From: a virus
Lineage: Duplodnaviria > Caudoviricetes
Virus record (IMG/VR): IMGVR_UViG_3300014039_000013
Span: 32,001 to 96,000 of that record
Strand: one strand, 5' to 3'
DNA length: 64,000 nt
The notes under the pieces are model-generated. The model saw nothing but the letters and a program-made list of their open reading frames with translations. It did not search any database and was not told where the DNA came from. A program made the translations under genes and the position numbers. Of this stretch, positions 15,081-52,336 are shown piece after piece. Position 1 is the stretch's first letter. Each line of letters begins with the position of its first letter.

Positions 15081-15602
15081 TTAATAATTATTTAATTTAT
15101 ACTTAAGTTGTTTAATACCTTTTTTAGTTAAAGCATATTTAGCAATTGGTATAATAGTATCTACAAATTTAATACTATCATCTTTATAATCTATATGTTT
15201 ATATATTTTAGAAGTTCCGATGTAAGTAGGAACTTTAGATAAATCATTATTTCTATATAAATATGTTAATAGATAATCCCAGTAATACTCATCGAAATTG
15301 CATTTCTCATCAAATTCATTTCTATAATAAGTATGGAAATTAATAGAAAAACCAAATCTTTTAAAGAAACAAACCCAAATATATGGTGGTCTTTCATATC
15401 TTACATCATCATATTTGGTTTTCCAAGAAACATCTACACATGATATATCTATAATTTTACCTATCCATTTATAAGATGCATAAGGACAATTATAAAGAGG
15501 ATTTGTGAAAAAATGAATACTAATTTTAGGTCTTTTAAAATACTTCCTACACTCCTACCATGTTTTTAATGGGTTTTCTATAAGATAATTTATATCCTTC
15601 AA
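15081..15602 (-). CDS. Hypothetical protein, about 173 aa, with one internal TAG (not in the ORF track)
   Basis: Fills a 550-nt gap. Probable TTG start at 15602: LKDINYLIENPLKTW(TAG 15555-15557)ECRKYFKRP..WKTKYDDVRYERPP..; TAA at 15081-15083. Start position is uncertain. Confidence 0.65.
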
Positions 15603-15630
15603 ATTTTTTATTATAAATCATTAGAATATT

Positions 15631-15831
15631 TTATTTTTCGTATAACAAAACTTTGGTTAAATAGTTAATGGCATCCAATTCAGTTTCATGTAAAGAAATT
15701 AATTTGTCATTAATATTAATATCCCAACCTTCTTTATTAGCCCATTCTGTTACTGTGATATAATCATTATCTTTAGCTATATAACTAAACTTTTTCAAAT
15801 TAGCATTTATTTGTCTTACATTTTCTATCAT
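15631..15831 (-). CDS. Hypothetical protein
   Basis: 66-aa ORF in operon context. Confidence 0.65.
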   Translation of the reverse strand: MIENVRQINANLKKFSYIAKDNDYITVTEWANKEGWDININDKLISLHETELDAINYLTKVLLYEK

Positions 15832-15841
15832 ACTATATTAA

Positions 15842-16150
15842 TTATTCGTTATATATTACTTCATAATCATCAACATCCCATTCTTTTAGTATATCTTGTG
15901 GAAGTATATATTGATTTTCTACAGCTGCCTTTAAATCACAATTTGAATAATCTATTTCTTCAAAAGGAATGTCGTCTTCATCTTTACCAGAATCAATAAT
16001 CTCATAATCAGATACCTTGATCTTAACAGTTTTACTTAGAGTTACACTAATAATAACTTCAATTTCTTTTTCAGGATTATCCTCATGATTCCAAGGGGCA
16101 TTTGGATTGTATTCTGTTCCTACAGGTATATTATTTAAAGTATTATACAT
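15842..16150 (-). CDS. Hypothetical acidic phage protein (PNAPWN motif)
   Basis: 102-aa ORF with N-terminal PVGTEYNPNAPWN. Confidence 0.7.
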   Translation of the reverse strand: MYNTLNNIPVGTEYNPNAPWNHEDNPEKEIEVIISVTLSKTVKIKVSDYEIIDSGKDEDDIPFEEIDYSNCDLKAAVENQYILPQDILKEWDVDDYEVIYNE

Positions 16151-16163
16151 AATTAATAAACCT

Positions 16164-16574
16164 TTAATTATTTATAAGTTTACCACACAACGTACCATCT
16201 GCAAATTTCCATTCTTTATCAAGAAGTTCCTCAAATGATATTTCAGAATCAAAATTATAAAATCTAAGCATAATTCTGCTATTATCTACATTAACTGGAA
16301 AATAATGAGTGTTACCATGCTTAACAAAATTACCATGCTTTTGCAATGCACCTATAAACTCTCCAGCATTTTTAAATGGTACATATTCAGAGGCAGGTTT
16401 AACTCTATAATTATAAGGTTCTTTTTCCAAATAAGCCAGTTCTTCAAATTTATTTACATCTATCCAAACAGAAATAAATGGATCATAGGGCTTTTGAGTT
16501 TTATGTTGAACAACTACTCCGTTAAGATATGCTGATAAAACTTCATTCATTTTATTATAAACCTCTCTTGTCAT
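16164..16574 (-). CDS. Hypothetical phage protein
   Basis: 136-aa ORF with YRVKP..YVPF..FADGTLCG. Confidence 0.7.
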   Translation of the reverse strand: MTREVYNKMNEVLSAYLNGVVVQHKTQKPYDPFISVWIDVNKFEELAYLEKEPYNYRVKPASEYVPFKNAGEFIGALQKHGNFVKHGNTHYFPVNVDNSRIMLRFYNFDSEISFEELLDKEWKFADGTLCGKLINN

Positions 16575-16715
16575 ATTATTTTAAGAATTTAAAATGATTA
16601 TACTTTGTTTTAATTTTAAAAATTTGATATTCTAATATAGCCCATAAAATAATAGCTATTATCGCTAATGAGCTGAACACAATAAAGAAAACTAAATGTA
16701 AAGGCATAAAATTAA

Positions 16716-16874
16716 TTAAGGACAATGTTTATTATTAAACTTCTTTACTCTACCACATTTTTCACATACCCAATATGCAGTATAAGGATTTATCTCTTTA
16801 TATATATATTTATGTCTACAGAATATATTTTCTTTCATCCAATTTTTAATAAATATAAAAATATCACCTAACAT
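16716..16874 (-). CDS. Small Cys/His zinc-binding-like protein, 52 aa (below the track cutoff)
   Basis: Manual translation MLGDIF..FCRHKY..WVCEKCGRVK..; abuts the upstream gene. Confidence 0.55.
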   Translation of the reverse strand: MLGDIFIFIKNWMKENIFCRHKYIYKEINPYTAYWVCEKCGRVKKFNNKHCP

Positions 16875-16876
16875 AT

Positions 16877-17095
16877 TTAATCAGATATAATTATAGAATT
16901 ACTATTTAATGTATTCATTTCGCAAATTTCTTTAAATAGCTGCTTACCTGAATGATTAAGCCAATCCATAAATGGTTGATAAATAACTTGTTTATCTTCT
17001 AACATAGGACAATGCTTAATAGTATCATTAAGTTTTCTTATAATTTGAAGTATCATAATGATATCATCTTTTGAAAGTACATATTTAATATCCAT
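16877..17095 (-). CDS. Hypothetical protein
   Basis: 72-aa ORF. Confidence 0.55.
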   Translation of the reverse strand: MDIKYVLSKDDIIMILQIIRKLNDTIKHCPMLEDKQVIYQPFMDWLNHSGKQLFKEICEMNTLNSNSIIISD

Positions 17096-17442
17096 GATTT
17101 ATATATAGTTCTAAACTATTATATTTATTAATACCCCTAATCATTGCTAACTAATCTTATATAAACTGCATTATCTTCTATATTTTCTATATCAATATAG
17201 TCATTATCTTTGTATTCAATATAGTACATAGAATATTCAGAAACATTTTTATTTTTTTTCAATTAGTGTTTCCTCAGATTGACACATGCCAATCAACTCA
17301 TGATTTACCGTAAAAGCTAAATAAAGTTTCTTATTATTGCGTATCATATAACATGTATTTAATTTAATTACTTATCTATATAGTACATTATATTGTGTAT
17401 TATAAAAAACTTGTGATTAATTATCATTTTTGTTTTTATATT

Positions 17443-17676
17443 TTAAGCAATTGGAAATATGTTTGTCAATTCTTCGTCTGACTTATGGAATATATCATAA
17501 TATTCTTCATTAGACATATAATTCAAATAGTCCTCAGCTATATCATTAAAATCATCGTCATACCGCTGAACTACTGCATTGAGTAAAAGTTCTTCTTTTA
17601 GCAATTCAGCCAATCTGTCTTCTGCAATTATTCTATATCTCATAACTTTAATCTTAAATTTTAATGTCTTCTCCAA
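17443..17676 (-). CDS. Hypothetical protein (start may be the ATG at about 17643)
   Basis: 77-aa ORF. Confidence 0.55.
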   Translation of the reverse strand: MEKTLKFKIKVMRYRIIAEDRLAELLKEELLLNAVVQRYDDDFNDIAEDYLNYMSNEEYYDIFHKSDEELTNIFPIA

Positions 17677-17757
17677 TAGTCTTTTTCTTTTTCATAATTT
17701 ATAGGATAAAATATAATAAGTAATATAATTAACAATATTATTATTTTATACATTTAC

Positions 17758-18120
17758 TTATTCAATTTCAATTTCCAATTTCCATCTGTAAATACTATCA
17801 CCACACTCATCACATGTCCCAAGATATTCTTCCTTTGTATTCTTATTATTTTTAACAAGTTTAATAAACGTATCTTGTGTACAATAGGTATCATATTCAC
17901 CATCCCAAAGATATCCAATTATCCATGCTGGTAAATTATATTGGATCTCAATTTCGTTGATTAAAGTATCGCATACTTTATTTACAAAATTAATATTATT
18001 AACTGCTTCCTTATCATGAATATCAGGTTCTTCATCTTTAACTAAATCTACCCATTCAATACCATTAATAAGATAAGAAAAGCTTGTACATCCTTCTGTT
18101 ATTTCAATGTTTACTTTCAT
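17758..18120 (-). CDS. Hypothetical protein with C-terminal CxxCG
   Basis: 120-aa ORF with GTCDECGD; overlaps the upstream stop. Confidence 0.7.
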   Translation of the reverse strand: MKVNIEITEGCTSFSYLINGIEWVDLVKDEEPDIHDKEAVNNINFVNKVCDTLINEIEIQYNLPAWIIGYLWDGEYDTYCTQDTFIKLVKNNKNTKEEYLGTCDECGDSIYRWKLEIEIE

Positions 18121-18469
18121 GATTTTTCTTAATTTTATTTCTTACAAATTTAAAGAATTTCTTTTTTGATATGTATAAATTGTATTTACTAATACTTATT
18201 TCAATAGTTGCATTTGAAGTGAATGAACATATTAAATGAATCACTTGCCTTTCATTATGTGAACCACCAAATTTCTTAATAAATTCTTCTGGTACATTAG
18301 TATATTCTTTAAATGGTTTTATTTCATAGCTTTTTAACTTAAATTTATATGGTGAACATTCATTCTTAAAAAGGTAATTAAACATTTCACCATTAATATA
18401 ATCATCAAAATAATATGATGAACACAGGTATGCTTCAATATATTTATCTACAAAAGAGTAATTGGTCAT
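18104..18469 (-). CDS. Hypothetical protein, paralog of 24538-24867
   Basis: Shared YLCSSY..Y(I/V)NG..Y.NVP..LYIS.KKF.KF.RN. Confidence 0.7.
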   Translation of the reverse strand: MTNYSFVDKYIEAYLCSSYYFDDYINGEMFNYLFKNECSPYKFKLKSYEIKPFKEYTNVPEEFIKKFGGSHNERQVIHLICSFTSNATIEISISKYNLYISKKKFFKFVRNKIKKNHESKH

Positions 18470-18666
18470 TTACTATAAAAATATTTATAATTAAAAACTT
18501 TATCTCTTGTTCTATATGCAAGAACAATCATATGTTTGCCATCTGGTATTATTGTTGTGCCGTGTGTTTTTTCACAATATATTTTCTTGTTATTAAGACG
18601 TAACCGTTTTCGTTCACTAATTACATATTTTCTAAGAGCTTTCTTTGTTTTTCTAATGCTTACCAT
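18466..18666 (-). CDS. Hypothetical basic protein, paralog of 19630-19842
   Basis: Shared KK.L.K..YC..P(D/N)G..M.VL..KYFY. Confidence 0.65.
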   Translation of the reverse strand: MVSIRKTKKALRKYVISERKRLRLNNKKIYCEKTHGTTIIPDGKHMIVLAYRTRDKVFNYKYFYSK

Positions 18667-18964
18667 ATTTTAATTTTATACATAAGTATTTCTTTTTTTT
18701 ATTCAATATCGTCTTTATTTATTTCATAGATTATGGAGAGCACCAACAGCACTATTCCAATTGTGATTAATGTGTCCATTTTATTTAATTTGTAATTATT
18801 AACGAAGACCTTACAATATACTTTTCGACACTTGTTTTAGAAACTGTAATCCTTGGAAAAGTTGAAGAATTCTCATTTATTAACTACTTATTATTCTTAT
18901 TATCGTAGTTGATTAGAACTTAATTAATCTGACTTCAAACATTTCTTTATATCTGAATTTAGTT

Positions 18965-19624
18965 TTAACTAAAATCAGTATAAATTGCAAATCTCAATCC
19001 ATCTTTTGACTGAAATTCTGAAAATTCAAAATCTACAAATCTATTCTTAGCATAAGGTGTAAAATCTGGAATTGAGATATTATCGTAATAATAAGTAGGT
19101 TCATTTGGATGCATAATATGATATGACCTATGAGAGCAGTATTGGAAATAAGGAAGATTTTTATCAAAATAATTTTCCTTTATATATTTTACTGTATCAG
19201 GATTCATATCATCAGGCAATTCTTCAATACTTCTAATTGCTTTTGATGTATAAAGACATTTTCCAATTTCATCATTGATAAATTCGTCCCATGAAAATTC
19301 TTCACCATATTCATCTTTAATTATAGCATTATTATCTACAATCCATTTATGAATGCTTTTGAGTGATGGTTTATAATATTTGAGTTTGTTAGCATCCCAA
19401 AGAAATGACCACCCAGCACTACGTTTACCAAGATGTATTTTACGTTGTTCATCTATATTTTTTATCCCTTCAGCTAAAACATTAGAAAACTCTTTTATGT
19501 TATCCCATACATCATTGCCTTTTTCTAATTTTTTCAGTAAGCCTTCTAATGTATATACAGCTCCCTCTACAGCATCTATACTTCTTTTATGTATAGGAAG
19601 AATTGCATAAAAATTAGTTCCCAT
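18965..19624 (-). CDS. Conserved-looking phage hypothetical protein
   Basis: 219 aa with MGTNFY..HLGKRSAGWSF..IKDEYGEE..DFS. Confidence 0.75.
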   Translation of the reverse strand: MGTNFYAILPIHKRSIDAVEGAVYTLEGLLKKLEKGNDVWDNIKEFSNVLAEGIKNIDEQRKIHLGKRSAGWSFLWDANKLKYYKPSLKSIHKWIVDNNAIIKDEYGEEFSWDEFINDEIGKCLYTSKAIRSIEELPDDMNPDTVKYIKENYFDKNLPYFQYCSHRSYHIMHPNEPTYYYDNISIPDFTPYAKNRFVDFEFSEFQSKDGLRFAIYTDFS

Positions 19625-19629
19625 AATAT

Positions 19630-19842
19630 TTAATAATTTTTTGATTTAATATAGAAATACTTAAGACCATAAGCTTTATCGTTCTTTTTAGAAAGTAGAC
19701 GTAATACCAACATACGATTACCATTAGGAAATATCTTATCGCTATAAATTATTTTACAGTATGTTTTATTAATATCTATTGGTATTGTATATCTTTTTAG
19801 TGCTATTTTCTTTAGCTTCTTTTTAGCATTTCTTAATTTCAT
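19630..19842 (-). CDS. Hypothetical basic protein, paralog of 18466-18666
   Basis: 70-aa ORF sharing motifs with its paralog. Confidence 0.65.
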   Translation of the reverse strand: MKLRNAKKKLKKIALKRYTIPIDINKTYCKIIYSDKIFPNGNRMLVLRLLSKKNDKAYGLKYFYIKSKNY

Positions 19843-19856
19843 TTAGATAATATAAA

Positions 19857-20273
19857 TTAATTATTGAATCTTTCAATCTTTATATTTCTTTCTTTTAAAA
19901 TATTATTACATACCCACAAAATAACATTATACACCCTGTCTATTCTGCTTTCTGTAATGTCTTTATATATAATATTACCCTCAGAATCAGAGACAATACC
20001 TGTATTTAAAGTCATGTCTATGCTATAATCAGGGATCTTTTTATTAATTGCATCACATATTCTTAATAAATCACCTAAAGTAAACCGATAATTTACTTTT
20101 AATATATCAGCAAAAAGATTACAATGATATTTTCTAGCATAAATATTATTTATCACATAACTACCATCTTTAGAATCATATATTAAAGAAGCATCATTAT
20201 CGTATATATTATGATCTAACAATTCTCTCATTTGTTCTTTAGTAAGAACTATATCTACAAAGTTATTATTCAT
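19857..20273 (-). CDS. Hypothetical protein
   Basis: 138-aa ORF overlapping the thyX stop. Confidence 0.7.
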   Translation of the reverse strand: MNNNFVDIVLTKEQMRELLDHNIYDNDASLIYDSKDGSYVINNIYARKYHCNLFADILKVNYRFTLGDLLRICDAINKKIPDYSIDMTLNTGIVSDSEGNIIYKDITESRIDRVYNVILWVCNNILKERNIKIERFNN

Positions 20274-22170
20274 GAATATATCCTCTTTTGATAAATTCTT
20301 GTTTTAAATTATTAGCAAGTTCTCTTATTTGAGGATGTGCAGCATTACTGCATCTAAGTTCAAAGAAATGAATCCAATCATCTATAAAAGCAGTATGTAT
20401 TACTTCTGTTTTAGTAGCTAACGGCAATACATCTCTTGCTTGTTGAGGTTTAAAACCTTCCTTAATAAGTTGTAGATAGGATTCTTCTGATTGCAGTAAA
20501 CTTAAGATAAAAACATCTGTAGGATTATAATCAGTAAAATATGATTGATTACTAAATAATTGCATATCATAATCACCTACTTTAATATCCATATTTACAG
20601 GTTTAATAAAAGTAAGCTCATTATTAAACTTATCTTTGCTATAATTACAGTTGTGTACTATTATACCATTAGCTACATAGTTATGATAATTTTCTATTTC
20701 TAAGTCGAATACTTCTTCTTCTTCATCTAATTCAGTTATAGTTATGATTCTATCTCCATGCAATGATGTTAAAGACTGATTATGGATTTTTTGATGACAA
20801 GAATGGCATACCGTCATTAAATTATCTGGAATATTATTACTATGATTTTTATCCTTATGATGTACTTCTAAATCTATAGTAGTTTTACAGATTTCACAAA
20901 ATGGTTTTTTGTGTTTTTGATATTTAGAAGTATTTTCTTTTAATATTTTTTCTGTAGAATCCCCATTATGATGATAATTTCTTAATGCATTTGCTTGTTT
21001 TGCAACTCGTTCGTCCTCAAATTTATTTTTTTCTTTATTCCAAGGAATTCGCCCTATATTAAAATATCCTGTTCCTTTATTAGGAATTCCTAATTTTTTA
21101 GCCCATTTTTTTAATGTTGATACATTAAAATTAAATTCATTCCCAATGGCTACGAAAGTTTTATTCAAAGTGATGTTTTGATTATATAACCAATCAAAGT
21201 CTTGATATAATTGTTTTCCTAATATGGGTTTTATAATATTATATTTATATAGCCATTTTCTGATTACATCTGGTTTAAATCCAAACTCCTTACAAATTTC
21301 AGAAACAGTTTTATTAGATTTTAGATAATGATATTCCAACCAATCTTTATTTTGATATACAGGTCCATCAATTCCGTTTACATAAATTTTATCTCCTATA
21401 TTCAATTCTGATAAATGTTTCCAACCATCGGGAGTATATATTTGATGATCTATGGTGCATTTTAAGGAATATCCTAATTCTGTAGTAATTTTGTATACCT
21501 TTTTAATACCATTATTAAATATATTTTTAATTTTAGAATATTCTAAAATTCCTGTATCAGTATTTAATACCTCTATTAAAATTTTAGATAATCTATTTTT
21601 ATTTTGTTTATCTTCCCATAATTCTTTAATAGTATAATGTGCATGAGAATTTTTATATTTTAATAAAGTATCGCCACTTACACAGTATCGTGTGCTCTCT
21701 TCGCATATACTATGACACCTATGTCTATTTAATTCTCTACTTATACCAATAGAAGTTATAAATTTAACTGTTATTCTTGGAGTATGCTCTCCTGTAAAAG
21801 AACATCTATATTTTTCCCATAAATTTTCCAACTTATTTTCAATAATAGCTCTATAGTTAGTAGTTATATACCAATTTTCATTATTATCATAAGACATTCT
21901 TACCCAAGGTTTATTATTAAGTAGAAGATAAAACAAATCAAAATCAGCTTTATTTTCCTTTGCATTAATCTTCATATAAACTGTACTATGTTCCCAAGGA
22001 CTTAAATGGCCATTACTTCTTATCATAGTAAGAAATCTTTGATAAGAAGTATCTGTAATTTTATCCTCTGATTTATAGCAAATCCTACAGGCTTTTTCTA
22101 TATGTTTAAATAGTCCTATTGTAGTATTAGGCTGTTCAATAATTTCAAAAGATTGATTTATTAATTTCAT
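20266..22170 (-). CDS. thyX: FAD-dependent thymidylate synthase ThyX containing an intein
   Basis: GHLSPWEH, ELNRHR..ESTRY|intein|CNY, QARDVLP, ELRCSNAAHPQIR. Confidence 0.92.
   Translation of the reverse strand: MKLINQSFEIIEQPNTTIGLFKHIEKACRICYKSEDKITDTSYQRFLTMIRSNGHLSPWEHSTVYMKINAKENKADFDLFYLLLNNKPWVRMSYDNNENWYITTNYRAIIENKLENLWEKYRCSFTGEHTPRITVKFITSIGISRELNRHRCHSICEESTRYCVSGDTLLKYKNSHAHYTIKELWEDKQNKNRLSKILIEVLNTDTGILEYSKIKNIFNNGIKKVYKITTELGYSLKCTIDHQIYTPDGWKHLSELNIGDKIYVNGIDGPVYQNKDWLEYHYLKSNKTVSEICKEFGFKPDVIRKWLYKYNIIKPILGKQLYQDFDWLYNQNITLNKTFVAIGNEFNFNVSTLKKWAKKLGIPNKGTGYFNIGRIPWNKEKNKFEDERVAKQANALRNYHHNGDSTEKILKENTSKYQKHKKPFCEICKTTIDLEVHHKDKNHSNNIPDNLMTVCHSCHQKIHNQSLTSLHGDRIITITELDEEEEVFDLEIENYHNYVANGIIVHNCNYSKDKFNNELTFIKPVNMDIKVGDYDMQLFSNQSYFTDYNPTDVFILSLLQSEESYLQLIKEGFKPQQARDVLPLATKTEVIHTAFIDDWIHFFELRCSNAAHPQIRELANNLKQEFIKRGYIHE
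20650..21684 (-). mobile_element. Intein, 345 aa, with HNH endonuclease and two HTH-like repeats
   Basis: Begins CVSGDT; block B LKCTIDHQI; ends VFDLEIENYHNYVANGIIVHN followed by Cys+1; internal CEIC..EVHHKDKNHSNN..NL..CHSCHQKIH. Confidence 0.92.
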
Positions 22171-23916: not shown

Positions 23917-23918
23917 AT

Positions 23919-24498: not shown

Positions 24499-24537
24499 AA
24501 AAGTTATTCATTATCTATACGTTTTTAAACACAATAT

Positions 24538-24867: not shown

Positions 24868-24961
24868 ATTATAAATAGCATATATTAATAAAAGAGATTT
24901 GATATAAGGCTTTTTTAATTAAATCTTGTGAATTTTCTTTACCTGTCATATAATAAAAACT

Positions 24962-24996
24962 AAAATAGGTGTTGCCCAATATTGAGCAACACCTAT
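24962..24996 (-). terminator. Intrinsic terminator-like hairpin
   Basis: ATAGGTGTTGC/GCAACACCTAT stem right after the stop at 24999, followed by a short U tract. Confidence 0.65.
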
Positions 24997-43400: not shown

Positions 43401-45963
43401 TGGACTTAATTTACCTTTTTTACCATACATATGATTTTTACTGCCAAGTTGTGCTTCACCTATTTTCTTTTTGGTTTCTTTAGAATGTTTACCTGTTGAA
43501 TTTCCACCATTTTCTATATTATATCCAATATTATGATCCTGTGTATTAAATTCTAAAATATATTTTGTTTCTAATATATTCATTTCTTCTTGAGTTTCTA
43601 TATTATCTACTAATATTTCAAATTCAAAGTTTTCAAAATCATATTTTTTTATTGCTTTTATAATAGGTCTAGATGTGTCTGGAGATTTAAATTTAGTATC
43701 AGATTTATAATTTCGTATTCTGTCTTTTAATTTCTAAGTTGTTTGTCCAATATAAATTTTATTGTTGATTTTATTAGTAATTTTATAAATTAACATAGTC
43801 TTCACCGTTAGCATTAATAATTAAGTTATCAATGTAAATGTATGAAATTTATGGTCAATATCAAAATTATTAACACACCCTGCATTTACAGGTTCACCTT
43901 ATAATAATCTTATAAATTACTTTATAAGACGGCCAAATTGACCATTCGTACTTGTCATTGAGTTAAGTTGATAAAGTAATGTTTGCATACTATCAACTAT
44001 TTCTTTATTCAGAAACTTGTTTACAAGCTTATTTTTTTCATTTGGAGATAAATCCTTAAATTGCTCTTCGTAATATTCTTTACTACTGCGAACAAATGGT
44101 GCTAAATGAGCTAAAGTAATACTTACTCCCACCAAAATATAATTTGTATCTTATATAATGGCAGACTATTTCTTACAGAAATTTGTATTTTTCTGTGGAC
44201 ACGTTTCCATTAAATTTTAATTTAATGTACTCTCTTTCGAGATAGTCGTTACAATTATATTAATTTATCAATAACTTTAATATTATATTTTTCAGGATTG
44301 TCTATATATCGTCTAGCTTGTGTTTCAGATTTACCTATAAATCTAGCGTAAGCAGCTATAGTTTTAAATATATATTTATTATTATAAATAATTGTCCATC
44401 TATTAGGAGTTCCTATATTTTTCTGTCTTTTTAATTTATTATATGCGTGTAAATTATTATAAGATTGAGAAACCCATTCAAGATTAGAAGCATCATTATT
44501 CTGAACATTTCCATCTTTATGATTTATAGTATTATTAATTTCACTATATCCATCACAAAAATTAAATCCAACTAATCGTGCTACTTGAAGATTTTCTTTT
44601 TTATCATTATTACATAAAGTTACATAAAATCTATTAGATTTTTGATTAGGGCTTAATGTTAATAAATAAAATTTGTTATAACTTATAGCAAAATGTTTAA
44701 CTCTACCTTTATTAGAAATTTCATAACCATCATACCCTAATATGGGTTTCCAGATTTCTCCTTCTATAGGTTCTATATTATAAAGTCTAGAACTTTTTTC
44801 TATCTTATCATTTATAATATTATTATGTTTTTTAGATAACTTTTCTCTATATTCTTCTACAGCACTTATTAAATCATTATCTAATTTATAAGTATACAAT
44901 AACTTAGAATAAGGTATATTAATTTCTTTAGAAATATCTTTTAAAGAAATATTATTTTTTAATCTTGATATTATTAGATTTTTATACTTATTTATAAATT
45001 TCTTGTTAGATGGAGTTATTCTTTTAACTTTTAATTTTTCAAATTCCCAATCTTTTAATTGTAGTCCTAATTTCTTTCTATTTAATTTTAATAAATTACT
45101 GATATATACTGTACTTTTGCCTTCTTTACAGTATAATTGATATATAGTATCTTTTAATTCTAATATTTTGTTATTCATAGCATTCCACTATTTAAAATTA
45201 ATATAATCACGAGATTTAAATATTCCATTTATCCCTCGTTAGCTTTGAAACTTAATTCAAAACCCTTATTAGGTTAGTGTCCTTTTAATACGGCAGATTA
45301 AAATGGGAAACCGTATTGGCTCGAACTTACGGCAACAAGTATTTGAGTTGCAATGGTTGTAGCCGTTCTTAGTGAATGAGGCTTTTCGATGAGTTTGCCA
45401 TTAATAACTGTTCCATTTTGAAGCATATCTTCTAAGTTAATTAATGAGCAGTTGCTCATTCCATGCATAAATCTATAATCTGTATCATGAATATGGATTG
45501 CACCTTTTTCATGTAATTTAAGTAGTTCTTTGTTACACTCTAATTCTTTATATAGCTTCTTGCAAACTTCTCCAGCTACTAAATCGCGCATTACATTAAA
45601 TTGTTTAGGATTTTTATTTCCATTTTCATTAGTAACCTTGTTAGTTTTTCCAGAAACTATTTCTTCAATAGTAGTATTAAACTTATTAGAATCAGCTATA
45701 TTCCTAGCAAGTTTATGCTTATATCTATAAAGAATATACTCTTTTGCTACTTGTTGATAATCATAATTCATAAGTAGCTCTTCTATCTGATCTTGTATTT
45801 CTTCAATACTCATCTTATCCCAAATATAAACAGAATTATATATATCTTCTATAACAGTGCTATTAATATCTATTTTACACTGTTTAAAAGCTCTATACAA
45901 AGCTGTTTTGATTCTATTGGGATCAAATTCCTGTAAATTACCTTTTCTATCTGTAACTTTCAT
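37491..45963 (-). CDS. nrdD: Class III anaerobic ribonucleotide reductase NrdD in eight exons (703 aa after splicing)
   Basis: Exons 45963-45310, 44129-43941, 42810-42664, 41766-41602, 41354-41294, 40471-39888, 38883-38646 and 37564-37491 total 2112 nt in frame. Splicing restores ATP-cone, IHIHD, QYG|G, NG|QSPF, FP|KL, MG|CR, GRLNIGV, SGG|CISY, CxxC..CPxC and RLCGYIG. Confidence 0.92.
37565..38645 (-). mobile_element. Group I intron 7 of nrdD, splitting the Tyr codon after the glycyl-radical Gly
   Basis: P1 GGGU/GCCC; P10 AAUAU/AUAUU; core GCUGGAAACUCC, ACGACUA, GUAUAGUC; terminal G at 37565. Confidence 0.85.
37568..38345 (-). CDS. Intron HNH-AP2 endonuclease, N-terminus frameshifted in an A7 run
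   Basis: IDHINGNSLDNRKSNLR plus AP2-like SGFRGV..KW. The likely start MRKTTKFCDICG..LCKK|HMHQ at 38345 matches paralog 38877-39641 but is one base out of frame. Confidence 0.75.
38877..39641 (-). CDS. Intron HNH-AP2 homing endonuclease
   Basis: VVDHIDSNPLNNCRSNLR, SNYIGV..QWAAEI; N-terminal CxxC..CxxH. Confidence 0.85.
   Translation of the reverse strand: MSHTIKIGTCSICNRKNTKVYTLKGYKDVCSKHMHQIHKYGKPLDNNPRTTNDFNDYIIKNDIAIFNVYNQRNEKVTEFIIDKSDIDLIKYKKWRLSSKGYIVTGNCTKTNPTTWLHRILLNPKDDEVVDHIDSNPLNNCRSNLRICKQFENVCNKTFMSNNTSNYIGVYLDKSRNQWAAEIRFGKSRIHLCRWYTIEEAVCARYIAEKILFKEFQNTSEQKKKEKIIKNKIKKSQFLSIKEYVVNKLKSKNCV
38884..39887 (-). mobile_element. Group I intron 6 of nrdD
   Basis: P1 GGAGGU/GCUUCC; P10 AUACA/UGUAU; GAAGAUAUAGUC at about 39661-39672; terminal G at 38884. 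Confidence 0.85.
40472..41293 (-). mobile_element. Group I intron 5 of nrdD
   Basis: P1 GACGGU/GCCGUC; P10 GUUUA/UAAAC; terminal G at 40472. Confidence 0.87.
40498..41154 (-). CDS. Intron HNH endonuclease using TAG=Gln (218 aa; the track shows only 40558-41040)
   Basis: MNTIIINEQEFK(TAG 41116-41118)FRDTWYYVNKLGDVYS..HRIIAE..VNHINDNSLDNRVENL; second TAG at 40558-40560, then TAA at 40498-40500. Confidence 0.75.
41355..41601 (-). mobile_element. Group I intron 4 of nrdD, 247 nt, no ORF, at MG|CR
   Basis: P1 CAUGGGU/GCCCAUG; UCGACUA and AUAUAGUC core; terminal G at 41355. Confidence 0.87.
41767..42663 (-). mobile_element. Group I intron 3 of nrdD
   Basis: P1 CUUCCCU/GGGGAAG; GAAGAGAUAGUC; terminal G at 41767. 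Confidence 0.87.
41876..42487 (-). CDS. Intron NUMOD4-HNH-NUMOD1 endonuclease, probably inactive
   Basis: YAVSKSGKIKS, VHRLVAFAFIPNP, INRKDSNPLNN..NLEW (expected catalytic His replaced by Arg), SAYGYIWKY. Confidence 0.82.
   Translation of the reverse strand: MEEKFKVLTGITENYAVSKSGKIKSLSRLVYDTGHDRYYKIKEKILKSYINNKGYECVDLRINNKTRKFLVHRLVAFAFIPNPNNYEVINRKDSNPLNNDVKNLEWCTTSYNIQYEWSFNDRKVSDNMMAQFKKPKLHLWKAIQQYDLSNKFLQEFKSMTEATKWLITKDLTSNPKANSNISACCNGKAKSAYGYIWKYKEEV
42811..43940 (-). mobile_element. Group I intron 2 of nrdD
   Basis: P1 AUGGU/GCCGU; core nearly identical to intron 3; terminal G at 42811. Confidence 0.85.
43007..43796 (-). pseudogene. Intron GIY-YIG endonuclease with a TAG at codon 21 and C-terminal frameshifts
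   Basis: MLIYKITNKINNKIYIGQTT(TAG 43734-43736)KLKDR..AIKKYDFENF..GYNIENGG, NUMOD3-like HSKETKKKI; apparent frameshifts near 43250 and 43085. The end coordinate is approximate. Confidence 0.7.
44130..45309 (-). mobile_element. Group I intron 1 of nrdD
   Basis: P1 AAUACGGU/GCCGUAUU; ACGACUA and AAAUAGUC; terminal G at 44130. Confidence 0.85.
44255..45178 (-). CDS. Intron HTH-NUMOD4-HNH endonuclease
   Basis: EIWKPILGYDGYEISNKGRVK, TINHKDGNVQNNDASNLEWVSQSYNNLH. Confidence 0.85.
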   Translation of the reverse strand: MNNKILELKDTIYQLYCKEGKSTVYISNLLKLNRKKLGLQLKDWEFEKLKVKRITPSNKKFINKYKNLIISRLKNNISLKDISKEINIPYSKLLYTYKLDNDLISAVEEYREKLSKKHNNIINDKIEKSSRLYNIEPIEGEIWKPILGYDGYEISNKGRVKHFAISYNKFYLLTLSPNQKSNRFYVTLCNNDKKENLQVARLVGFNFCDGYSEINNTINHKDGNVQNNDASNLEWVSQSYNNLHAYNKLKRQKNIGTPNRWTIIYNNKYIFKTIAAYARFIGKSETQARRYIDNPEKYNIKVIDKLI

Positions 45964-45972
45964 AATGTATAA

Positions 45973-46015
45973 AATATCCCAGACTATAAAATATATATTT
46001 ATAATCTGGGATATT
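45973..46015 (-). promoter_or_regulatory. Long hairpin immediately upstream of the nrdD start
   Basis: AATATCCCAGA-TATAAA..TTTATA-TCTGGGATATT inverted repeat; could be a terminator or a translational operator. Confidence 0.55.
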
Positions 46016-46024
46016 CAATATAAA

Positions 46025-46801
46025 TTAAAGTGATAATATTTTCTTTAAGAGCATTGTTTTTTCAAACTGATTCATAATATCCTTTTTTAATGAATCAGTA
46101 ATACATTGAGTAAAAGCATTATACACATTAAACATATTAGTATCTTTCTCTCCTACATAATATGGAGATTTTTCATTAGAATACAATAGTTTATATGCAG
46201 ATTCTGCTACTGATGAAGCTAATTTAATTTTTCCAAATCCATTATCTTCATATTCAACCATACAACGTTTAATCCAATTACCCAATTGTTCAGATGTATT
46301 TCTATAATCAGAATCAAATGGAGTATCAAGCATTTGTTTTAATGTAACTGCAATGCTGTTAACTTCTTCCAACATTCTATTTACTGGTTTAAAATTCATT
46401 GGTGAATTTGATTCTAACTCCTTAACTTCTAAATCATCAGGATTAAATACACAAAGATTAGTACAAGCCATATTTAATCCACCAGTATAAATTTTATAAA
46501 TTGGTTTTCTAACATCCAATCCATATACTAAACCAATAACTTGTTTATGATTTTTAAAATTTAATTCATTAGGTAAAACTGCTTGAATCCATACTCTATT
46601 ATAAGTTATATCTTCAGTAGTAATTTTTCCATCAGAATCAAGGGTTACTTGATTTGGAAGTTGAACCTGAACCCTAAAATCATCAGTTATATTATGAAGT
46701 CTTTCTAGAAATGGATTAATATATGCTTCTGTTGGTAAATATTCATTATTTTTAATTCGCGTTGCTTTTCCTTTTAAAAGTTCATTTATAGTAATTTCCA
46801 T
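46025..46801 (-). CDS. DUF932-like conserved phage protein
   Basis: ACTNL..FNVYNAFTQ pattern. Confidence 0.65.
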   Translation of the reverse strand: MEITINELLKGKATRIKNNEYLPTEAYINPFLERLHNITDDFRVQVQLPNQVTLDSDGKITTEDITYNRVWIQAVLPNELNFKNHKQVIGLVYGLDVRKPIYKIYTGGLNMACTNLCVFNPDDLEVKELESNSPMNFKPVNRMLEEVNSIAVTLKQMLDTPFDSDYRNTSEQLGNWIKRCMVEYEDNGFGKIKLASSVAESAYKLLYSNEKSPYYVGEKDTNMFNVYNAFTQCITDSLKKDIMNQFEKTMLLKKILSL

Positions 46802-46818
46802 ATTATATTATTTAATTA

Positions 46819-48360
46819 TTACATATTTTGAAATTCACCTCTAGTAATATGATTATTAATCATTAGGTCATAACTAACTCCATAAGAATTAGCTGAAAAA
46901 TTCATTGCAGAATAATCACTTGCTCCGAATAAACTCAATGTATTTCTATAATCAAATCGTTTACAAGAAGTGTAACTATTAGAATGTAAGTCTCCTTTAA
47001 TAACATGAACAGGACAATTATGTATATTTATTTGTTCTAGGAATTCATACATTTGTACTTGTGTTTTATCATTAAGCACAAGAGGCAAACCTCTTTTCAT
47101 GTATTGATCGTCCTTACCATGACAAATTAGAAATTTATGAGAATTTAATTCAAATATACCAAAAAATTCTTCAAATAGAGTTGTTGTAATATCAGGGAAT
47201 TTATTATTAATTAAATTCATTATAGCTTTGTTACAAATATATTCATAATTTCCAGAATGATTTCCACATGGTACAGAATATAAATTAATTTTATTAGATA
47301 AATTCATACTTATACAACTTGTAACAAACCAATCTATAAGTTCAATATATTTATTTGCTTGTTCTCTTGCATCCATGTTTTCTGGAATATAATGATCAAG
47401 TCTAGCTGTCTTATTAATAATACCGCAACAATCAATATTATCTCCAAGTAAAATAATATTTAATGTATCAAAAGCCCCAAATTCATAAAGACCATCGATA
47501 ACTTTAGTAAGTCTACGTTTAGCTTCTTCAAATCCATAATTAATATTTTCTACAGCAAGAGTACCTGAAGTTACTGATGCTCCTAAATGAATATCGGCTA
47601 AATATACATTTATAGACTGACCGTATTCTTTATTGTCATTATCAATGATATATGGTTTAATATTTCCATTAATTTCAACTTTAAAATTAGAATAATCTTT
47701 TAATTTCTGTTTTAATTCAATGTTTTCTTGGGCATATTTTCTAAGAAGTTTTTCATTATTTTTAATAATGTCTTCCTCTGATTTGCGTAAGAAGTCATTT
47801 TCTTTTTCTCTAAGTTGAATTTCACGTAATTCATCTTCTGTTTTTTCCTCTATCATATGTGGAGGAAATGGACTCGAAGCTTTAGTAATATTAAACGCCC
47901 TAAGTATTCTTTTAAAATCAATTAAAGAATAATCTGGGAAAAATCTACTAACTTGTCTTTGCGTTAATGATGCACCATAATATGAATACATTCTATATAT
48001 AGAAGACATTTCTTCTCTAGTTATACTTCCTGTAAGTGCTGGTTTATTCTTTTTAAATATTTTAAAAGAATAAAGTTTTATTTTACCACTGTCATCTCTT
48101 ATTTGTTTAACTTCTGATATATCATCTGTATCTAATTTTTCTTCAGAACAATTGTTTTGTGTTTTTAAATTATTGTAAAGATCTAATGCTTGCTTGTGAT
48201 ATTCCAAACTTGAATCTTTATTAAGATCACTTTTAATCTTAGAAATATATTTAAATGGTTTAGTAGTATTGTGTTCTTTACAATATTTACTAATAGAAAT
48301 ATTATCTTTTTTAATTTGTTCTAGAAGATTAATAAAATTTTTGACAGTAGTTTCTTTCAT
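46819..48360 (-). CDS. Metallophosphoesterase-domain protein with a long N-terminal extension
   Basis: ADIHLG, LGDNID, CGNH, CHGKD, GDLH motifs. Confidence 0.8.
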   Translation of the reverse strand: MKETTVKNFINLLEQIKKDNISISKYCKEHNTTKPFKYISKIKSDLNKDSSLEYHKQALDLYNNLKTQNNCSEEKLDTDDISEVKQIRDDSGKIKLYSFKIFKKNKPALTGSITREEMSSIYRMYSYYGASLTQRQVSRFFPDYSLIDFKRILRAFNITKASSPFPPHMIEEKTEDELREIQLREKENDFLRKSEEDIIKNNEKLLRKYAQENIELKQKLKDYSNFKVEINGNIKPYIIDNDNKEYGQSINVYLADIHLGASVTSGTLAVENINYGFEEAKRRLTKVIDGLYEFGAFDTLNIILLGDNIDCCGIINKTARLDHYIPENMDAREQANKYIELIDWFVTSCISMNLSNKINLYSVPCGNHSGNYEYICNKAIMNLINNKFPDITTTLFEEFFGIFELNSHKFLICHGKDDQYMKRGLPLVLNDKTQVQMYEFLEQINIHNCPVHVIKGDLHSNSYTSCKRFDYRNTLSLFGASDYSAMNFSANSYGVSYDLMINNHITRGEFQNM

Positions 48361-48394
48361 TTTTCAATGTTTATTACAGTTACGTTTTTAAAAT

Positions 48395-48428
48395 AAAAAA
48401 GCTGAGCCAGTTAAAAACCGACTCAGCT
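48395..48428 (-). terminator. Intrinsic terminator
   Basis: Minus strand AGCUGAGUCGGUU/AACUGGCUCAGCU stem followed by a U tract. Confidence 0.8.
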
Positions 48429-48458
48429 CATTAGAAATATATTATATTATAAGTACGA

Positions 48459-49028
48459 TTATGCTTCTACACCAAACATGATAAAGCGACCAATCTTGAA
48501 ATTCTTAGATGGAGCATATTTAACATTGAATGCAACAGTAGTACCTTCAATAATCTTCTTAGCTCTAATACAAGTTGTATCTTCTGTAACCTTCTTAGAA
48601 GAATACAAGTCACGTGCAAGTTTCTTGATTTCTGATTGTGTTTCAGCTTCTGCAAGAACATTGCCATCAGCAGTCTTCAACTGATAAACACTCTTCCATT
48701 TACGACGACCATTAGCATCCTTAGCAGGTTCAAACTTATACGGACGCTCGCGAGTATCAGCAGACGCAGATTCAACAGTAATCGCAAGACCCAAACCAGG
48801 AGCCATCTTGGTTTTTGATTTCAATTGATCAATCAAGAAATCTTTAATCATTACTTCAGTGATAGCAGTTTTTTGATTAGCTACCCAAGCCTTATATGCA
48901 TGAGTTGCATCGCCAAAAATCTTAAACGGAGCTTTATCATAAGCTTCTTGCTTAGTTGAACCTGTTACCTCGAATTTCTTAAAATTTACAAAATTTTCCA
49001 TTTTTTTTATTTTTAATTTATTAAACAT
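48459..49028 (-). CDS. Conserved-looking hypothetical protein (start probably MENF at 49001)
   Basis: ADTRERPYK motif; followed by a terminator. Confidence 0.75.
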   Translation of the reverse strand: MFNKLKIKKMENFVNFKKFEVTGSTKQEAYDKAPFKIFGDATHAYKAWVANQKTAITEVMIKDFLIDQLKSKTKMAPGLGLAITVESASADTRERPYKFEPAKDANGRRKWKSVYQLKTADGNVLAEAETQSEIKKLARDLYSSKKVTEDTTCIRAKKIIEGTTVAFNVKYAPSKNFKIGRFIMFGVEA

Positions 49029-49111
49029 TTATTCATTAACTTACTTATGTAAGTCATCATTTTTTAAGTAATATCTAATTTATATTCCAATTTTAATATA
49101 AACAAATCTTA

Positions 49112-49465
49112 TTAAAAAGGCATATATGATTTTAAAATATCATATATTGTTTTTAACATATTTTTTGGTTCAATATCAAATGTTGGAAATTCTTTACATT
49201 GATAACTAAAATCATCACAAACTACAGAAAGACCCTTAATAAAATCTTCTGGTAAATTAAGTTTCTCATTTAGTTTATGTAAAATAGAATATGCTGTTAC
49301 TCCTGGCTTTTTCTGCTTTAAATTATATGTAAGATAACCAACCAAAGATATTAAAGCAAATTTAGTTTTAATATCTGTATTTAAATATCCTAATGAATAT
49401 TTATTAGCATATTCCTGCCGCATTTGACTATAAGGCGGCGAAGTTTCTATATCTGGTCGCAACAT
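49112..49465 (-). CDS. Hypothetical protein
   Basis: 117-aa ORF. Confidence 0.7.
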   Translation of the reverse strand: MLRPDIETSPPYSQMRQEYANKYSLGYLNTDIKTKFALISLVGYLTYNLKQKKPGVTAYSILHKLNEKLNLPEDFIKGLSVVCDDFSYQCKEFPTFDIEPKNMLKTIYDILKSYMPF

Positions 49466-50453
49466 AATATGCTACTAATTTTAGTAATTGTGAAAATTCT
49501 TTGAATCCTTGTAAATACATTTTTTTAGTCATCGGTACTACTTTCGTATAATAATTTGGAATTGTACTTACAACTAAAAAATTACCTTTTATTTTTGGAT
49601 TATCCAAATTAAAGAATTTTTTTGCACACAAACTCAATAAATAAGCATACATTCCAAGTTCACGTTGATAATGATAACGATCAATTGCTTCATGAAATTC
49701 ATTAACCATTTTACCTGTTGTTTTGACATCATTTACAATAATAGTATTATTTTCAAAATCAATAGTAAATTGGTCTAATTTACTTTTTAATTTTAAAATA
49801 AAATGTTCATTATTATAATTAACATTTACATCAAGTAAAATAGTACGTTCGTAGCCATTTTCTGGTTGTTGTAATAGCCCACTAGGATGAAGTAATTTTT
49901 GTATCTGAGAACTTCTAGAAACACTCTCTAAACATGAATTTACACAATTCCTATGTCGTTCAGATAAATAAATTGGAATCTTATTTAAATGAAATTTTTC
50001 TTCAAAATCAGCTCTGTTTTTCCAATAATTATTACATTTTAATTTAATATCTGAAATTTTCTTATCAGATAAAAAACCACCATAATAATCGTATTTTATA
50101 GCAGCACTAATTATTTGTTCATTACTAGGAGTTTTTCTAGTATTTGTGTATAATTCATCTGCTATATAACCCATTTTTGCTGTAGGTCTATCAACACAAT
50201 CTACCATAAAAAATGATTCTGGTTGTAATATTAATTCATGAACAGCACTACCTACTATTAAAGAATCACTAAAAGCGTTAAACTTTCCTTCAAAAAACTG
50301 TTCTGGAGTACCACCCTGTTTTGGATTTATTAATCCTAATCTAGAGTTTGATATATAATTAGAAAAACGCTTAGAAAAATATATTTCATCAGATATATTT
50401 TCTAAGCGTAAACTTTCTATTATTGGTTCGATTTGTATTTCATTTAAATTCAA
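49428..50453 (-). CDS. PD-(D/E)xK exonuclease (RecE/ExoVIII-like)
   Basis: ISNSRL, GSAVHELIL, KSKLD..NDVKTT, YQRELGMY. Confidence 0.82.
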   Translation of the reverse strand: MNLNEIQIEPIIESLRLENISDEIYFSKRFSNYISNSRLGLINPKQGGTPEQFFEGKFNAFSDSLIVGSAVHELILQPESFFMVDCVDRPTAKMGYIADELYTNTRKTPSNEQIISAAIKYDYYGGFLSDKKISDIKLKCNNYWKNRADFEEKFHLNKIPIYLSERHRNCVNSCLESVSRSSQIQKLLHPSGLLQQPENGYERTILLDVNVNYNNEHFILKLKSKLDQFTIDFENNTIIVNDVKTTGKMVNEFHEAIDRYHYQRELGMYAYLLSLCAKKFFNLDNPKIKGNFLVVSTIPNYYTKVVPMTKKMYLQGFKEFSQLLKLVAYYVATRYRNFAAL

Positions 50454-50489
50454 ATTATAGAATTTTAACTATATTTTTTACATATATAC

Positions 50490-50800
50490 AGCAACTCCTC
50501 TACCAGCCCCTAGTAGAGTAACTACAGAGAAGCTGGCACAGAGCCTCACACCCTTCTTAGGTGTCATATTGTATATATATTATACTATAATAATATACTC
50601 AGAGGCCACCGAGACTAACCCAATTAAGCGTCTACCAGAACGAACGTGGGATTTATAATTTAGGCTGGACCATGTTGCGGAGTTGTCAGACAGAGCATGG
50701 ATTTGTTCACGTTAGTTAGTCTTAGGTAAGCGGACTTAATGCCGCACGTTTCTAATATTTATTATGTCCTAGAAATGATCCGCAAAGAAGGACTAAGTAC
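50490..50800 (-). ncRNA. Candidate structured non-coding element (ncRNA or origin)
   Basis: GC-enriched intergenic stretch with no track ORF and several nested stems (see findings). Strand inferred from G-U pairs; no family recognised. Confidence 0.45.
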
Positions 50801-50822
50801 AATTAAATATATATTTTTATTT

Positions 50823-51341
50823 TTAACACCAAAATGATTTTAATAAATTATTAAAATCATTTTTAATAAATTCTTCATAAATAGGTATTATTTCATTTAT
50901 TTTTAAAGAATGAATTCTCCCTATATTTTTCCACGATTTATTATTATTAGAATCCATAAGTAAACATGGTATTCCTTTTTGATTTAAATCAATAAAATTC
51001 TTTAAAGAGTCATCAATAAACAAATCCACTTTACCTTTTAATAAATCATATTTAGAAATATGATAACCATTTACTTGATAAAGTGGACTATTTAATCCAT
51101 ATTTTTTTAAATATGCTTTTGTCCAATTTTTAGAATTTACTCTAGCACTACAAAATAACCTTGGTATAAAGTCTGGCATATTAAGTAATGGTAAATTTAG
51201 CCAAAAATCACGTTCATGTATTAAAATGTTGTTTACATTTCTAGTAATCGCCCAATCATATTTAGGAAATTTACCAAAACGTTTAATATATCCTGAATCC
51301 CAATCTGCAATAACATTATCAATATCTAAACCAATTCTCAC
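50823..51341 (-). CDS. HAD-family 5'(3')-deoxyribonucleotidase-like protein
   Basis: IGLDIDNVIAD, CSAR, FIDDS motifs. Confidence 0.82.
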   Translation of the reverse strand: MRIGLDIDNVIADWDSGYIKRFGKFPKYDWAITRNVNNILIHERDFWLNLPLLNMPDFIPRLFCSARVNSKNWTKAYLKKYGLNSPLYQVNGYHISKYDLLKGKVDLFIDDSLKNFIDLNQKGIPCLLMDSNNNKSWKNIGRIHSLKINEIIPIYEEFIKNDFNNLLKSFWC

Positions 51342-51553
51342 AACTCATTGACATTAAAAATTTCACTTAAAGATATTCCGCAAATTTCATATATTAAATA
51401 TATAAATTCAATATATGAATTATAATGCATATTTGGGATATGTGTACTATAAATATATTCTACTTTTTTTTGAGCGTCTTCTATAGAATTTGCAATAATT
51501 ACTTCTGGATATGTACAACCTTTAATACAAACACTATATATATATTTATTCAT
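51338..51553 (-). CDS. Hypothetical protein
   Basis: 71-aa coupled ORF. Confidence 0.6.
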   Translation of the reverse strand: MNKYIYSVCIKGCTYPEVIIANSIEDAQKKVEYIYSTHIPNMHYNSYIEFIYLIYEICGISLSEIFNVNEL

Positions 51554-51758
51554 AAAGATTTGTTGTTATATAAAATATAAAATTTAATCCTTCAAGAGTG
51601 TCTATTAAATCTTCTTTACTTAAATTTAATTCAGAAATTAAAGGTAGATATTTATTTATAAATTTTTGAATCGCATCTTGTTCATTTGTTACATTCGTAA
51701 TTCTATAAATTTTGCATTTATCTTCAGAATTACTTAGTACTATATAGTAAGTATTCAT
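51546..51758 (-). CDS. Hypothetical protein
   Basis: 70-aa coupled ORF. Confidence 0.6.
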   Translation of the reverse strand: MNTYYIVLSNSEDKCKIYRITNVTNEQDAIQKFINKYLPLISELNLSKEDLIDTLEGLNFIFYITTNLYE

Positions 51759-52336
51759 TTTTTATAATGTTTTATTAGTTTATAAAAAAACTCCTTAGGA
51801 ACAAATACAACTTCTCCTTCACTATGCATATTAACTTGTCCGTCTTGTACTTTCTGTGAATTCCAAAATAGTACAAATGGTTTATCAGTTAATGGGCACT
51901 GTGATTTAATTTTAAAGAAACTTGGTGTATTTGAAGTACATTTTAATTGAGCATTAAAAGGCAATTGTGAATTAGTATCAATTAAATCTACTTTCAAATT
52001 ATCCAATTTCTTTGATTCTGATCTTGATGTAACTACACCTGTAAATCCTAATTCTCTAAGTTCTTTAGCAATTTTTTGTTCATATCTATTACCTTTTCCT
52101 TTAGAATATTTACCAGATTGTCTTTGTTTCTTTGCTTTTGCTTGATCGCATAAAGGGCATCCAGTATGTGTAAGAACCTTTTTAGCAATTTGAGAAACAG
52201 TGTTTCCACATGTATTACATTTATATGTTATATTTTTATCAAGTCCCTAATAATTACTTTCAGAAAAATCAAATTTTCCATGACCGTGTTTATTTTCGAC
52301 TTTATCGATAAATGTTTTAAGAGTTTGTTTTGTCAT
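51755..52336 (-). CDS. Holliday junction resolvase (Hjc-like) with an N-terminal zinc ribbon, 193 aa, one TAG=Gln
   Basis: ATG at 52336 overlaps the primase end. ESNY(TAG 52247-52249)GLDKN..CNTCG..GCPLC..SKGKGNRYEQKIAKELRELGF..VDLID..NAQLK; the track shows only 51755-52006. Confidence 0.8.

Follow-up and report, generated by a model that had tools for sequence, protein, structure and literature searches.

In-frame TAG codons as a probable translational lock on an Hjc-like nuclease and other nuclease genes in the replication block of a TAG-recoded crAss-like phage

We analyzed a 64,000-nucleotide (nt) stretch of phage DNA, referred to below as the window, which covers bases 32001 to 96000 of IMG/VR record IMGVR_UViG_3300014039_000013, a single 160,403-bp contig with a G+C content of 27%. 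The source is a crAss-like gut phage in which, as judged from protein alignments, TAG (amber) is read as Gln. Its minus-strand replication block is compatible with the standard code, and four nuclease genes embedded in that block carry in-frame TAG codons as sense codons. We consider it probable that these codons serve as a translational lock, which would be released once the suppressor tRNA of the phage acts. The case is strongest for a nuclease resembling the archaeal Holliday junction resolvase Hjc, whose single TAG near the 5' end appears to be under selection and hence to be a real gate, being hard to explain otherwise from the sequences of its relatives.

Genetic code and suppressor tRNA

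Two giant plus-strand open reading frames (ORFs) at the left end of the window stay open only if TAG codes for a residue. Over the whole genome there are 442 in-frame TAGs in 68 late-type ORFs, corresponding to 31% of Gln-type codons, with 27 to 53 in some late ORFs and the maximum, 53, in a single ORF. Among the relatives used for comparison, G4, G6, and G7 are TAG recoded, and G2 and G9 use the standard code. At 170 late-protein TAG sites that could be aligned to G2, Gln was enriched 5.5-fold and Ser was depleted, indicating that TAG stands for Gln in the source phage. Ser had been considered on account of the long extra arm of the candidate suppressor tRNA and was ruled out by the same alignment. 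This tRNA, predicted by ARAGORN, has the anticodon CTA (CUA), is 90 nt long, and is located on the plus strand at genome positions 114254 to 114343, between two small TAG-free ORFs and directly 5' of the TAG-rich plus-strand late genes that start at 114860.

The tRNA(CUA) loci (genome 113898-114860 in the source phage, 178306 in G4, and 77738 in G6) are preceded by TAG-free ORFs on their own strand in three of three genomes. TAG-rich genes lie directly downstream of the tRNA in the source genome and G4, and the tRNA marks the divergent edge of the replication block in the source genome and G6. ARAGORN found no tRNA(CUA) in the heavily recoded relative G7, and a megablast search of GenBank phages with a 22-kb query returned no match.

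Sense TAG codons in four nuclease genes

The 67-kb minus-strand replication block (genome 46101-113510) contains about 110 ORFs with 564 CAA/CAG codons, and its share of TAG is close to zero. The genes for ThyX, the ligase, and the helicases, the polB piece, and the nrdD exons are all open in the standard code, as a preliminary description made from the window sequence had stated. That description singled out five minus-strand genes with an early TAG and proposed that nuclease genes, transcribed together with early genes, are translated only after amber suppression begins. All five of its first-TAG positions proved exact: codon 2 of a free-standing GIY-YIG endonuclease gene (ATG at 32786), codon 13 of an HNH endonuclease gene in an nrdD intron (ATG at 41154), codon 16 of a hypothetical gene (TTG at 15602), codon 21 of a GIY-YIG endonuclease gene in another nrdD intron (ATG at 43796), and codon 30 of the Hjc-like nuclease gene (ATG at 52336). 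The four nucleases do have sense TAGs; the hypothetical gene appears to be decaying, and a sixth case, an endolysin gene, lies just outside the window. The remaining in-frame TAGs of the block are only stop codons or positions upstream of real starts. TAG-bearing genes were indeed concentrated in nucleases, at 4 of 11 nuclease genes versus 2 of 92 others (Fisher p = 0.001).

Several lines of evidence identify the TAGs of the four nuclease genes as coding. Domain homology crosses the TAG in both GIY-YIG genes and in the Zn-ribbon/PD-(D/E)XK gene, which is the Hjc-like nuclease. All stops interrupting the four genes are TAG (8 of 8; P ~2e-6), as measured against the off-frame stops of the block, of which 56% are TAA, 25% TGA, and 19% TAG. 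Neither TAA, TGA, nor a frameshift occurs over approximately 850 codons, in which a single base change could have produced TAA at 254 sites, TGA at 126, and TAG at 77. Synthesis of the full-length proteins therefore requires amber suppression.

Conservation of a single 5' TAG in the Hjc-like nuclease

The Hjc-like nuclease gene has no other start codon before codon 111, and its only TAG falls inside a Zn-ribbon domain common to about 30 full-length homologue clusters. Its label as an Hjc-type resolvase is tentative and derives from profile and model comparisons. The family profile matches archaeal Hjc chains (E = 0.008), and Pfam PDDEXK_15 gives 17.2 bits, which is under the cut-off of 27. In an AlphaFold model with a mean predicted local distance difference test score (pLDDT) of 72, the C-terminal domain weakly resembles restriction-endonuclease-type folds, including Hjc (Z 2.9); Foldseek returned nothing clear for this model, and Z scores from VIA-align were <= 4.6. 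Unlike archaeal Hjc, the phage nuclease has an extra N-terminal Zn-ribbon. This Zn-ribbon is missing from the G2/G4 group, which has a 133-aa orthologue (approximately 45% identity) in the same place and has no TAG.

Relatives of the fused form were retrieved from IMG/VR by scans that used an alignment as the query, a single-protein query having found nothing, and they were compared as DNA. The TAG is located at codon 29/30 (..Y-TAG-GLDK) in the source phage, L113 (G6), L114/L217 (G7), and L221; at codon 4 (MAK-TAG) in L115 and L120; and at codon 11 in L218. L116 (G9), L117-119, L219, L220, and L223 lack it. Every TAG-bearing copy has exactly one TAG, which is the first or second of its 6 to 13 Gln codons, and all later Gln codons are CAA or CAG. 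In the standard-code G9 and the L117 group, which have no in-frame TAG, the nuclease is TAG free as well.

This pattern has to be seen against the divergence of the lineages. They share 61 to 72% protein identity, and 33 to 52% of the codons for identical residues differ, so synonymous sites are near saturation for A+T-rich codon usage. Further, the choice between TAG and CAA/CAG in late genes keeps no memory between the source genome and G6 or G7: where the source has TAG, G6 has TAG at 4% and G7 at 19% of the sites, and where the source has CAA or CAG, the values are 5% and 14%. That the nuclease TAG was nonetheless kept at one site in four lineages, or was re-invented near the 5' end at two more, is hard to account for without selection for a TAG close to the start. 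A TAG near the 5' end at three alternative sites is what a selected gate predicts, and the sequence comparison supports that prediction. The preliminary description had asked about conservation in relatives, and for this nuclease the answer is positive.

Some of these codons are hidden in databases. Where the DNA of a near-identical N-terminus has TAG, the protein database prints Gln (P0044 versus L221:1501-2079; P0054 versus L120). The Gln at site 30 of the closest relatives of the nuclease, P0034-P0036, which are 80 to 93% identical and are known as database proteins, may likewise be a TAG. Since a TAG appears as Gln in the output of gene callers and in protein databases, gates of this kind cannot be seen at the protein level.

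TAG codons in homing endonucleases

The other three TAG-bearing nucleases of the block are homing endonucleases (Table 1). Both GIY-YIG genes have matches above the Pfam cut-offs for each of their domains (GIY-YIG or LEM-3_GIY-YIG, NUMOD1, NUMOD3, and I-HmuI_NUMOD-like). In the intron-encoded GIY-YIG gene, the first TAG directly follows the YIGQTT motif and the second precedes the TAA by 5 codons, and the next ATG, at codon 78, lies past the catalytic motifs. Gln occupies the first TAG site in its homologues L031 and L032, and IMG/VR homologues in other recoded phages contain TAGs (L063) or TGAs (L037 family and L088).

The intron-encoded HNH gene, located between nrdD exon pieces, matches Pfam HNH_3 with 29.8 bits (cut-off, 24.8) as well as PHROG 59 and 959. 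The preliminary description placed its first TAG correctly and missed a second sense TAG at codon 199. Alignment of six HNH paralogues did not resolve the N-terminus; IMG/VR homologues did, sharing both the N-terminus around the first TAG (MN..I.IN..EFK) and a 19-residue tail past the second. The second site is Gln in L214 and TAG in L216. The next start codon is codon 41.

In the free-standing GIY-YIG gene, the TAG at codon 2 is one of five spread over the gene. Their highest bases are 32783, 32582, 32486, 32390, and 32084; the first follows candidate ATGs by 2 to 7 codons, and four are inside the GIY-YIG, NUMOD1, and NUMOD-like domains. The start of this gene overlaps the end of dUTPase exon 2 and is located 16 to 31 nt inside it, an overlap with the upstream ORF like that of seg and mob genes in T4. 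The gene is missing between the same neighbors in the standard-code G2, and nrdD is uninterrupted in G4.

The exon splits of nrdD and of the dUTPase gene were defined from protein homology only. No match to the Rfam group I intron core was found at the gathering threshold or at E <= 1, and introns with large ORFs often escape such models.

Table 1. Coordinates, within the window, of the replication block and of the nuclease and hypothetical genes discussed in the text
Feature	Position	Strand	TAG codons and remarks
Replication block, part inside the window	14101..64000	-	Standard-code compatible; a few genes end in TAG
Conserved hypothetical gene, probably decaying	15081..15602	-	TAG at 15555-15557; 33 full-length homologues
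Free-standing GIY-YIG + NUMOD1 + I-HmuI-like endonuclease	32028..32801	-	Five TAGs versus three CAA/CAG
HNH endonuclease, dUTPase intron	32994..34022	-	TAG free; counter-example
HNH endonuclease, nrdD intron	37568..38323	-	TAG free; counter-example
HNH endonuclease, nrdD intron	38877..39641	-	TAG free; counter-example
HNH_3 homing endonuclease, 218 aa, nrdD intron	40498..41154	-	Sense TAGs at codon 13 (41116-41118) and codon 199 (40558-40560)
NUMOD4 + HNH endonuclease, nrdD intron	41876..42487	-	TAG free; counter-example
GIY-YIG + NUMOD3 homing endonuclease, nrdD intron	43233..43796	-	TAGs at codon 21 (43734-43736) and at 43251-43253
NUMOD4 + HNH endonuclease, nrdD intron	44255..45178	-	TAG free; counter-example
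Zn-ribbon (DUF723-type) + PD-(D/E)XK, Hjc-like nuclease, 193 aa	51755..52336	-	Single TAG at codon 30 (52247-52249)

Probable decay of the hypothetical gene

The hypothetical gene does not look like a gated gene. Of 13 aligned homologues, 10 have Trp at the site of its TAG, among them P0001 (87% identical), and a single transition converts TGG to TAG. In addition, all homologues start about 10 residues further upstream; in the window (15555-15660), the true ATG and the first 10 codons (MIYNKKFEGY) have been put out of frame by the loss of 2 nt from a TA run. The presence of two lesions inside 26 codons indicates decay rather than gating, and the gene is probably a young pseudogene or the result of an assembly error. 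With the frameshift and a TAG in place of Trp, we withdraw it from the set of gated genes that the preliminary description had drawn up.

Endolysin and TAG-bearing genes in relatives

The endolysin gene, of the Amidase_3 family (L112:1530-2120, corresponding to genome 96530-97120, minus strand), lies 530 bases past the end of the window; its codon 38, within the domain, is a TAG. The next possible start is a TTG at codon 44, and a protein made from it would be without the Zn-binding DNGHG motif. Because this endolysin with an early TAG belongs to the class, the class is broader than nucleases, and the idea that it is specific to them does not stand; its members are genes unwanted early, not nucleases as such.

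TAG-bearing genes are also found in the TAG-free blocks of the recoded relatives. That of G4 has a GIY-YIG gene with 5 TAGs, that of G6 an HNH gene with a TAG at codon 8, and that of G7 both a LAGLIDADG gene with 7 TAGs and a gene with 11 TAGs for a treble-clef Zn-finger protein with a weak DUF2726 match. In G6 (L196:12460-13758, minus strand), the reading frame of DnaB exon 1 continues into a LAGLIDADG ORF of the intron, and a lone TAG lies about 4 codons past the exon homology. The standard code stops at this TAG, and suppression would give an exon-endonuclease fusion.

Proposed mechanism and alternative explanations

In the mechanism we propose, TAG is read as Gln by the phage's own tRNA(CUA), encoded at the head of the TAG-rich plus-strand late block, and the standard-code replication block is translatable as soon as it is transcribed. 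On the TAG-bearing genes embedded in the block, ribosomes would get no further than 2 to 38 codons until the suppressor becomes active and would release a harmless peptide, and full-length proteins would be made from then on; these proteins are thus probably produced only once the phage tRNA is present. In the intron ORFs, an early stop would also keep ribosomes off the intron RNA and so spare splicing. We infer that transcription of the block comes early and precedes the action of the suppressor, and that enzyme made too soon would be harmful. With up to 53 TAGs in late ORFs, late read-through must be nearly complete, and a single TAG would accordingly work as a timer and not as a dimmer.

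A number of observations weigh against the lock. The TAG-recoded G4 has the short, 133-aa nuclease orthologue in an ungated form, and the endolysin of G6, an orthologue with 78% identity, has Lys at the TAG site and no TAG. As the preliminary description had cautioned, other nucleases have no TAG, namely, five homing endonucleases of the HNH type, of which nrdD contains four. In the homologues found for the TAG-bearing homing endonucleases (41 to 53% identical), the TAG sites are not conserved, a point on which the expectation of conservation was not borne out. Endonucleases with many TAGs have no 5' bias and resemble ordinary late-type genes, and the 67-kb block may contain late sub-operons. 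TAG is approximately 1.8-fold overrepresented among the Gln codons within the first 60 codons of late genes (p = 6e-4 in the source phage; p = 0.014 in G4), and this general excess is mixed, since the odds ratio in G7 is 1.0 overall and 1.8 with tightly defined starts; we do not rely on it.

One alternative is passive tolerance, in which mobile or late-needed genes, without pressure for early readability, drift to TAG, so that TAG marks late or dispensable status. The 5 to 11 TAGs scattered over the free-standing GIY-YIG gene and its counterparts fit this explanation, as do the lineage-specific insertion of the TAG-bearing endonucleases and the variable sites in their homologues and in the G6 endolysin. 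It nevertheless leaves the Hjc-like nuclease unexplained, with its one TAG in the first 30 codons at three alternative sites despite saturated divergence and with later Gln codons that are all CAA or CAG. Also unexplained is the position of the first TAG within the first fifth of the gene in all five intact TAG-bearing genes, which is suggestive, although the number of genes is small. We regard passive tolerance as rather unlikely for the system as a whole; for the homing endonucleases, on which a TAG would have the same effect, gating is plausible, and passive tolerance is a serious competitor.

The remaining explanations fare worse. Competition with release factor 1 might limit the dose of toxic nucleases at all times instead of delaying them, in line with the usually low levels of homing endonucleases and the several devices that T4 has for keeping them low. 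ORFs with 27 to 53 TAGs, however, need approximately 100% read-through per codon, so that one TAG would hardly cut the late yield, and we consider such a dose limiter very unlikely. Nonsense decay, by which the TAG-bearing genes would be dying copies and which had been named as a refutation, does hold for 15081-15602, with its frameshift and lost Trp; it is even less probable for the four nucleases, whose domains are intact, whose only interrupting stops are TAG, and whose TAGs align with Gln or are themselves conserved. Least probable of all, to the point of being hardly credible, is an annotation artefact in which the TAGs would precede the true starts. Several further 5' TAGs of the block are indeed artefacts: those at the 5' ends of the nrdD exon ORFs, which we rejected as coding, fall in intron sequence that these ORFs enter, and in ORF 36257-36520, for example, the TAG is followed by an ATG. 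In the Hjc-like nuclease, the intron GIY-YIG, and the HNH gene, the next starts come late, at codons 111, 78, and 41, respectively, and homologues share residues upstream of the TAG. The translational lock thus remains our preferred reading. It upholds the part of the preliminary interpretation in which the TAGs of the four nucleases are sense codons dependent on tRNA(CUA), and it gives up the restriction to nucleases together with the hypothetical gene.

Other features of the replication block

The block also encodes a sigma-70 family protein, an ATP-dependent ligase, dUTPase, NrdG, superfamily 1 (SF1), DnaB-type, and SF2 helicases, a much-interrupted NrdD, and ThyX with an intein. The sigma-70 family gene (29188-30039) is complete, with regions 1.2, 2, 3, and 4, and is a candidate switch for middle or late transcription. 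The ThyX gene (20266-22170) contains an intein (Intein_splicing domain, residues 174-507) with a helix-turn-helix motif; as the intein is TAG free, this mobile element would be translated along with the early gene that hosts it. The dUTPase gene consists of two separate pieces, exon 1 (34097-34444) and exon 2 (32809-32979), with the TAG-free HNH gene in between.

A few genes of the block terminate in TAG (at 23173, 49428, and 59238), which fits a standard-code reading early in infection. The ORFs 23113-23916, 27845-29191, and 49404-50453 each reach a TAG, with the next TAA or TGA 7 to 19 codons downstream, and suppression would lengthen the C-termini where the ORFs truly stop (23173 and 49428; 27872 is the polB piece). 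The 115-aa gene at 59238-59585 ends in a TAG that is in frame with the next gene (start at 59231), and read-through after the code switch would yield a 419-aa fusion. We considered whether 58326-59585 is a single TAG-containing gene and rejected this, as the two parts are in different frames in most relatives, which marks the TAG as a stop; they are in the same frame in L009.

Comparison with known systems

The idea of an amber gate has already been published. In the portions of Borges et al. available to us, recoding is proposed as a block on late and lytic genes and the gate is put forward for an intron endonuclease, and the system described there resembles the present one in its standard-code early genes, recoded late and lysis genes, and phage-borne suppressor tRNA. 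It differs in that here the codon is TAG (Gln), the phage is crAss-like, and the gate is on a conserved, nonmobile Hjc-like nuclease. A one-codon 5' gate with evidence of selection from alternative sites is present here, and we did not find one in those portions of Borges et al.; relative to them, the positional evidence from the Hjc-like nuclease is what is new.

The accessible part of the account of Zeta-type crAss-like phages (PMC12386605) reports suppressor tRNAs, introns, inteins, and many homing endonucleases. Like them, the source phage has a genome in the range of approximately 150 to 200 kb, replication and virion genes arranged in opposed blocks, clusters of tRNAs, suppressor tRNAs, and a set of mobile endonucleases that differs among relatives; in that part of the account, the placement of recoded stops is not linked to endonuclease genes.

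The debate over whether stop-codon recoding serves regulation in phages or arises as a by-product rests mostly on module-level correlations. The Hjc-like nuclease offers a compact case, as it is a conserved core gene with one amber codon in its first 30 codons, interchangeable sites for that codon, and standard-code neighbors. We tentatively raise the broader possibility, for which the chances may be somewhat short of even, that recoded phages evolved an "amber-gate regulon" in which single 5' TAGs act as trans-released locks on a junction nuclease, homing endonucleases, and an endolysin, with splicing protected where the genes lie in introns. If this is true, the code switch would be a gene-by-gene timer inside early operons, beyond the split into early and late modules.

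A parallel is found in phage T4, in which hairpins that hide the ribosome-binding site on early and middle transcripts occur at e, 49, soc, I-TevI/II/III, and segB, and likewise at mobE of Aeh1 (PMC3014915, PMC2988022). Delayed translation of I-TevI protects intron splicing in T4, and premature translation harms it (Gibb and Edgell 2010, cited in PMC3014915 and PMC2988022). The means differ, since in T4 an RNA structure blocks initiation and late promoters relieve the block, whereas here an amber codon would stop elongation and a tRNA would relieve the block in trans. The same three classes of protein are held back after transcription in T4, namely, a lysis enzyme (lysozyme e), a junction-resolving nuclease (endonuclease VII), and homing endonucleases, and this match suggests, by analogy, that a need to restrain DNA-cutting and lytic enzymes has arisen convergently.

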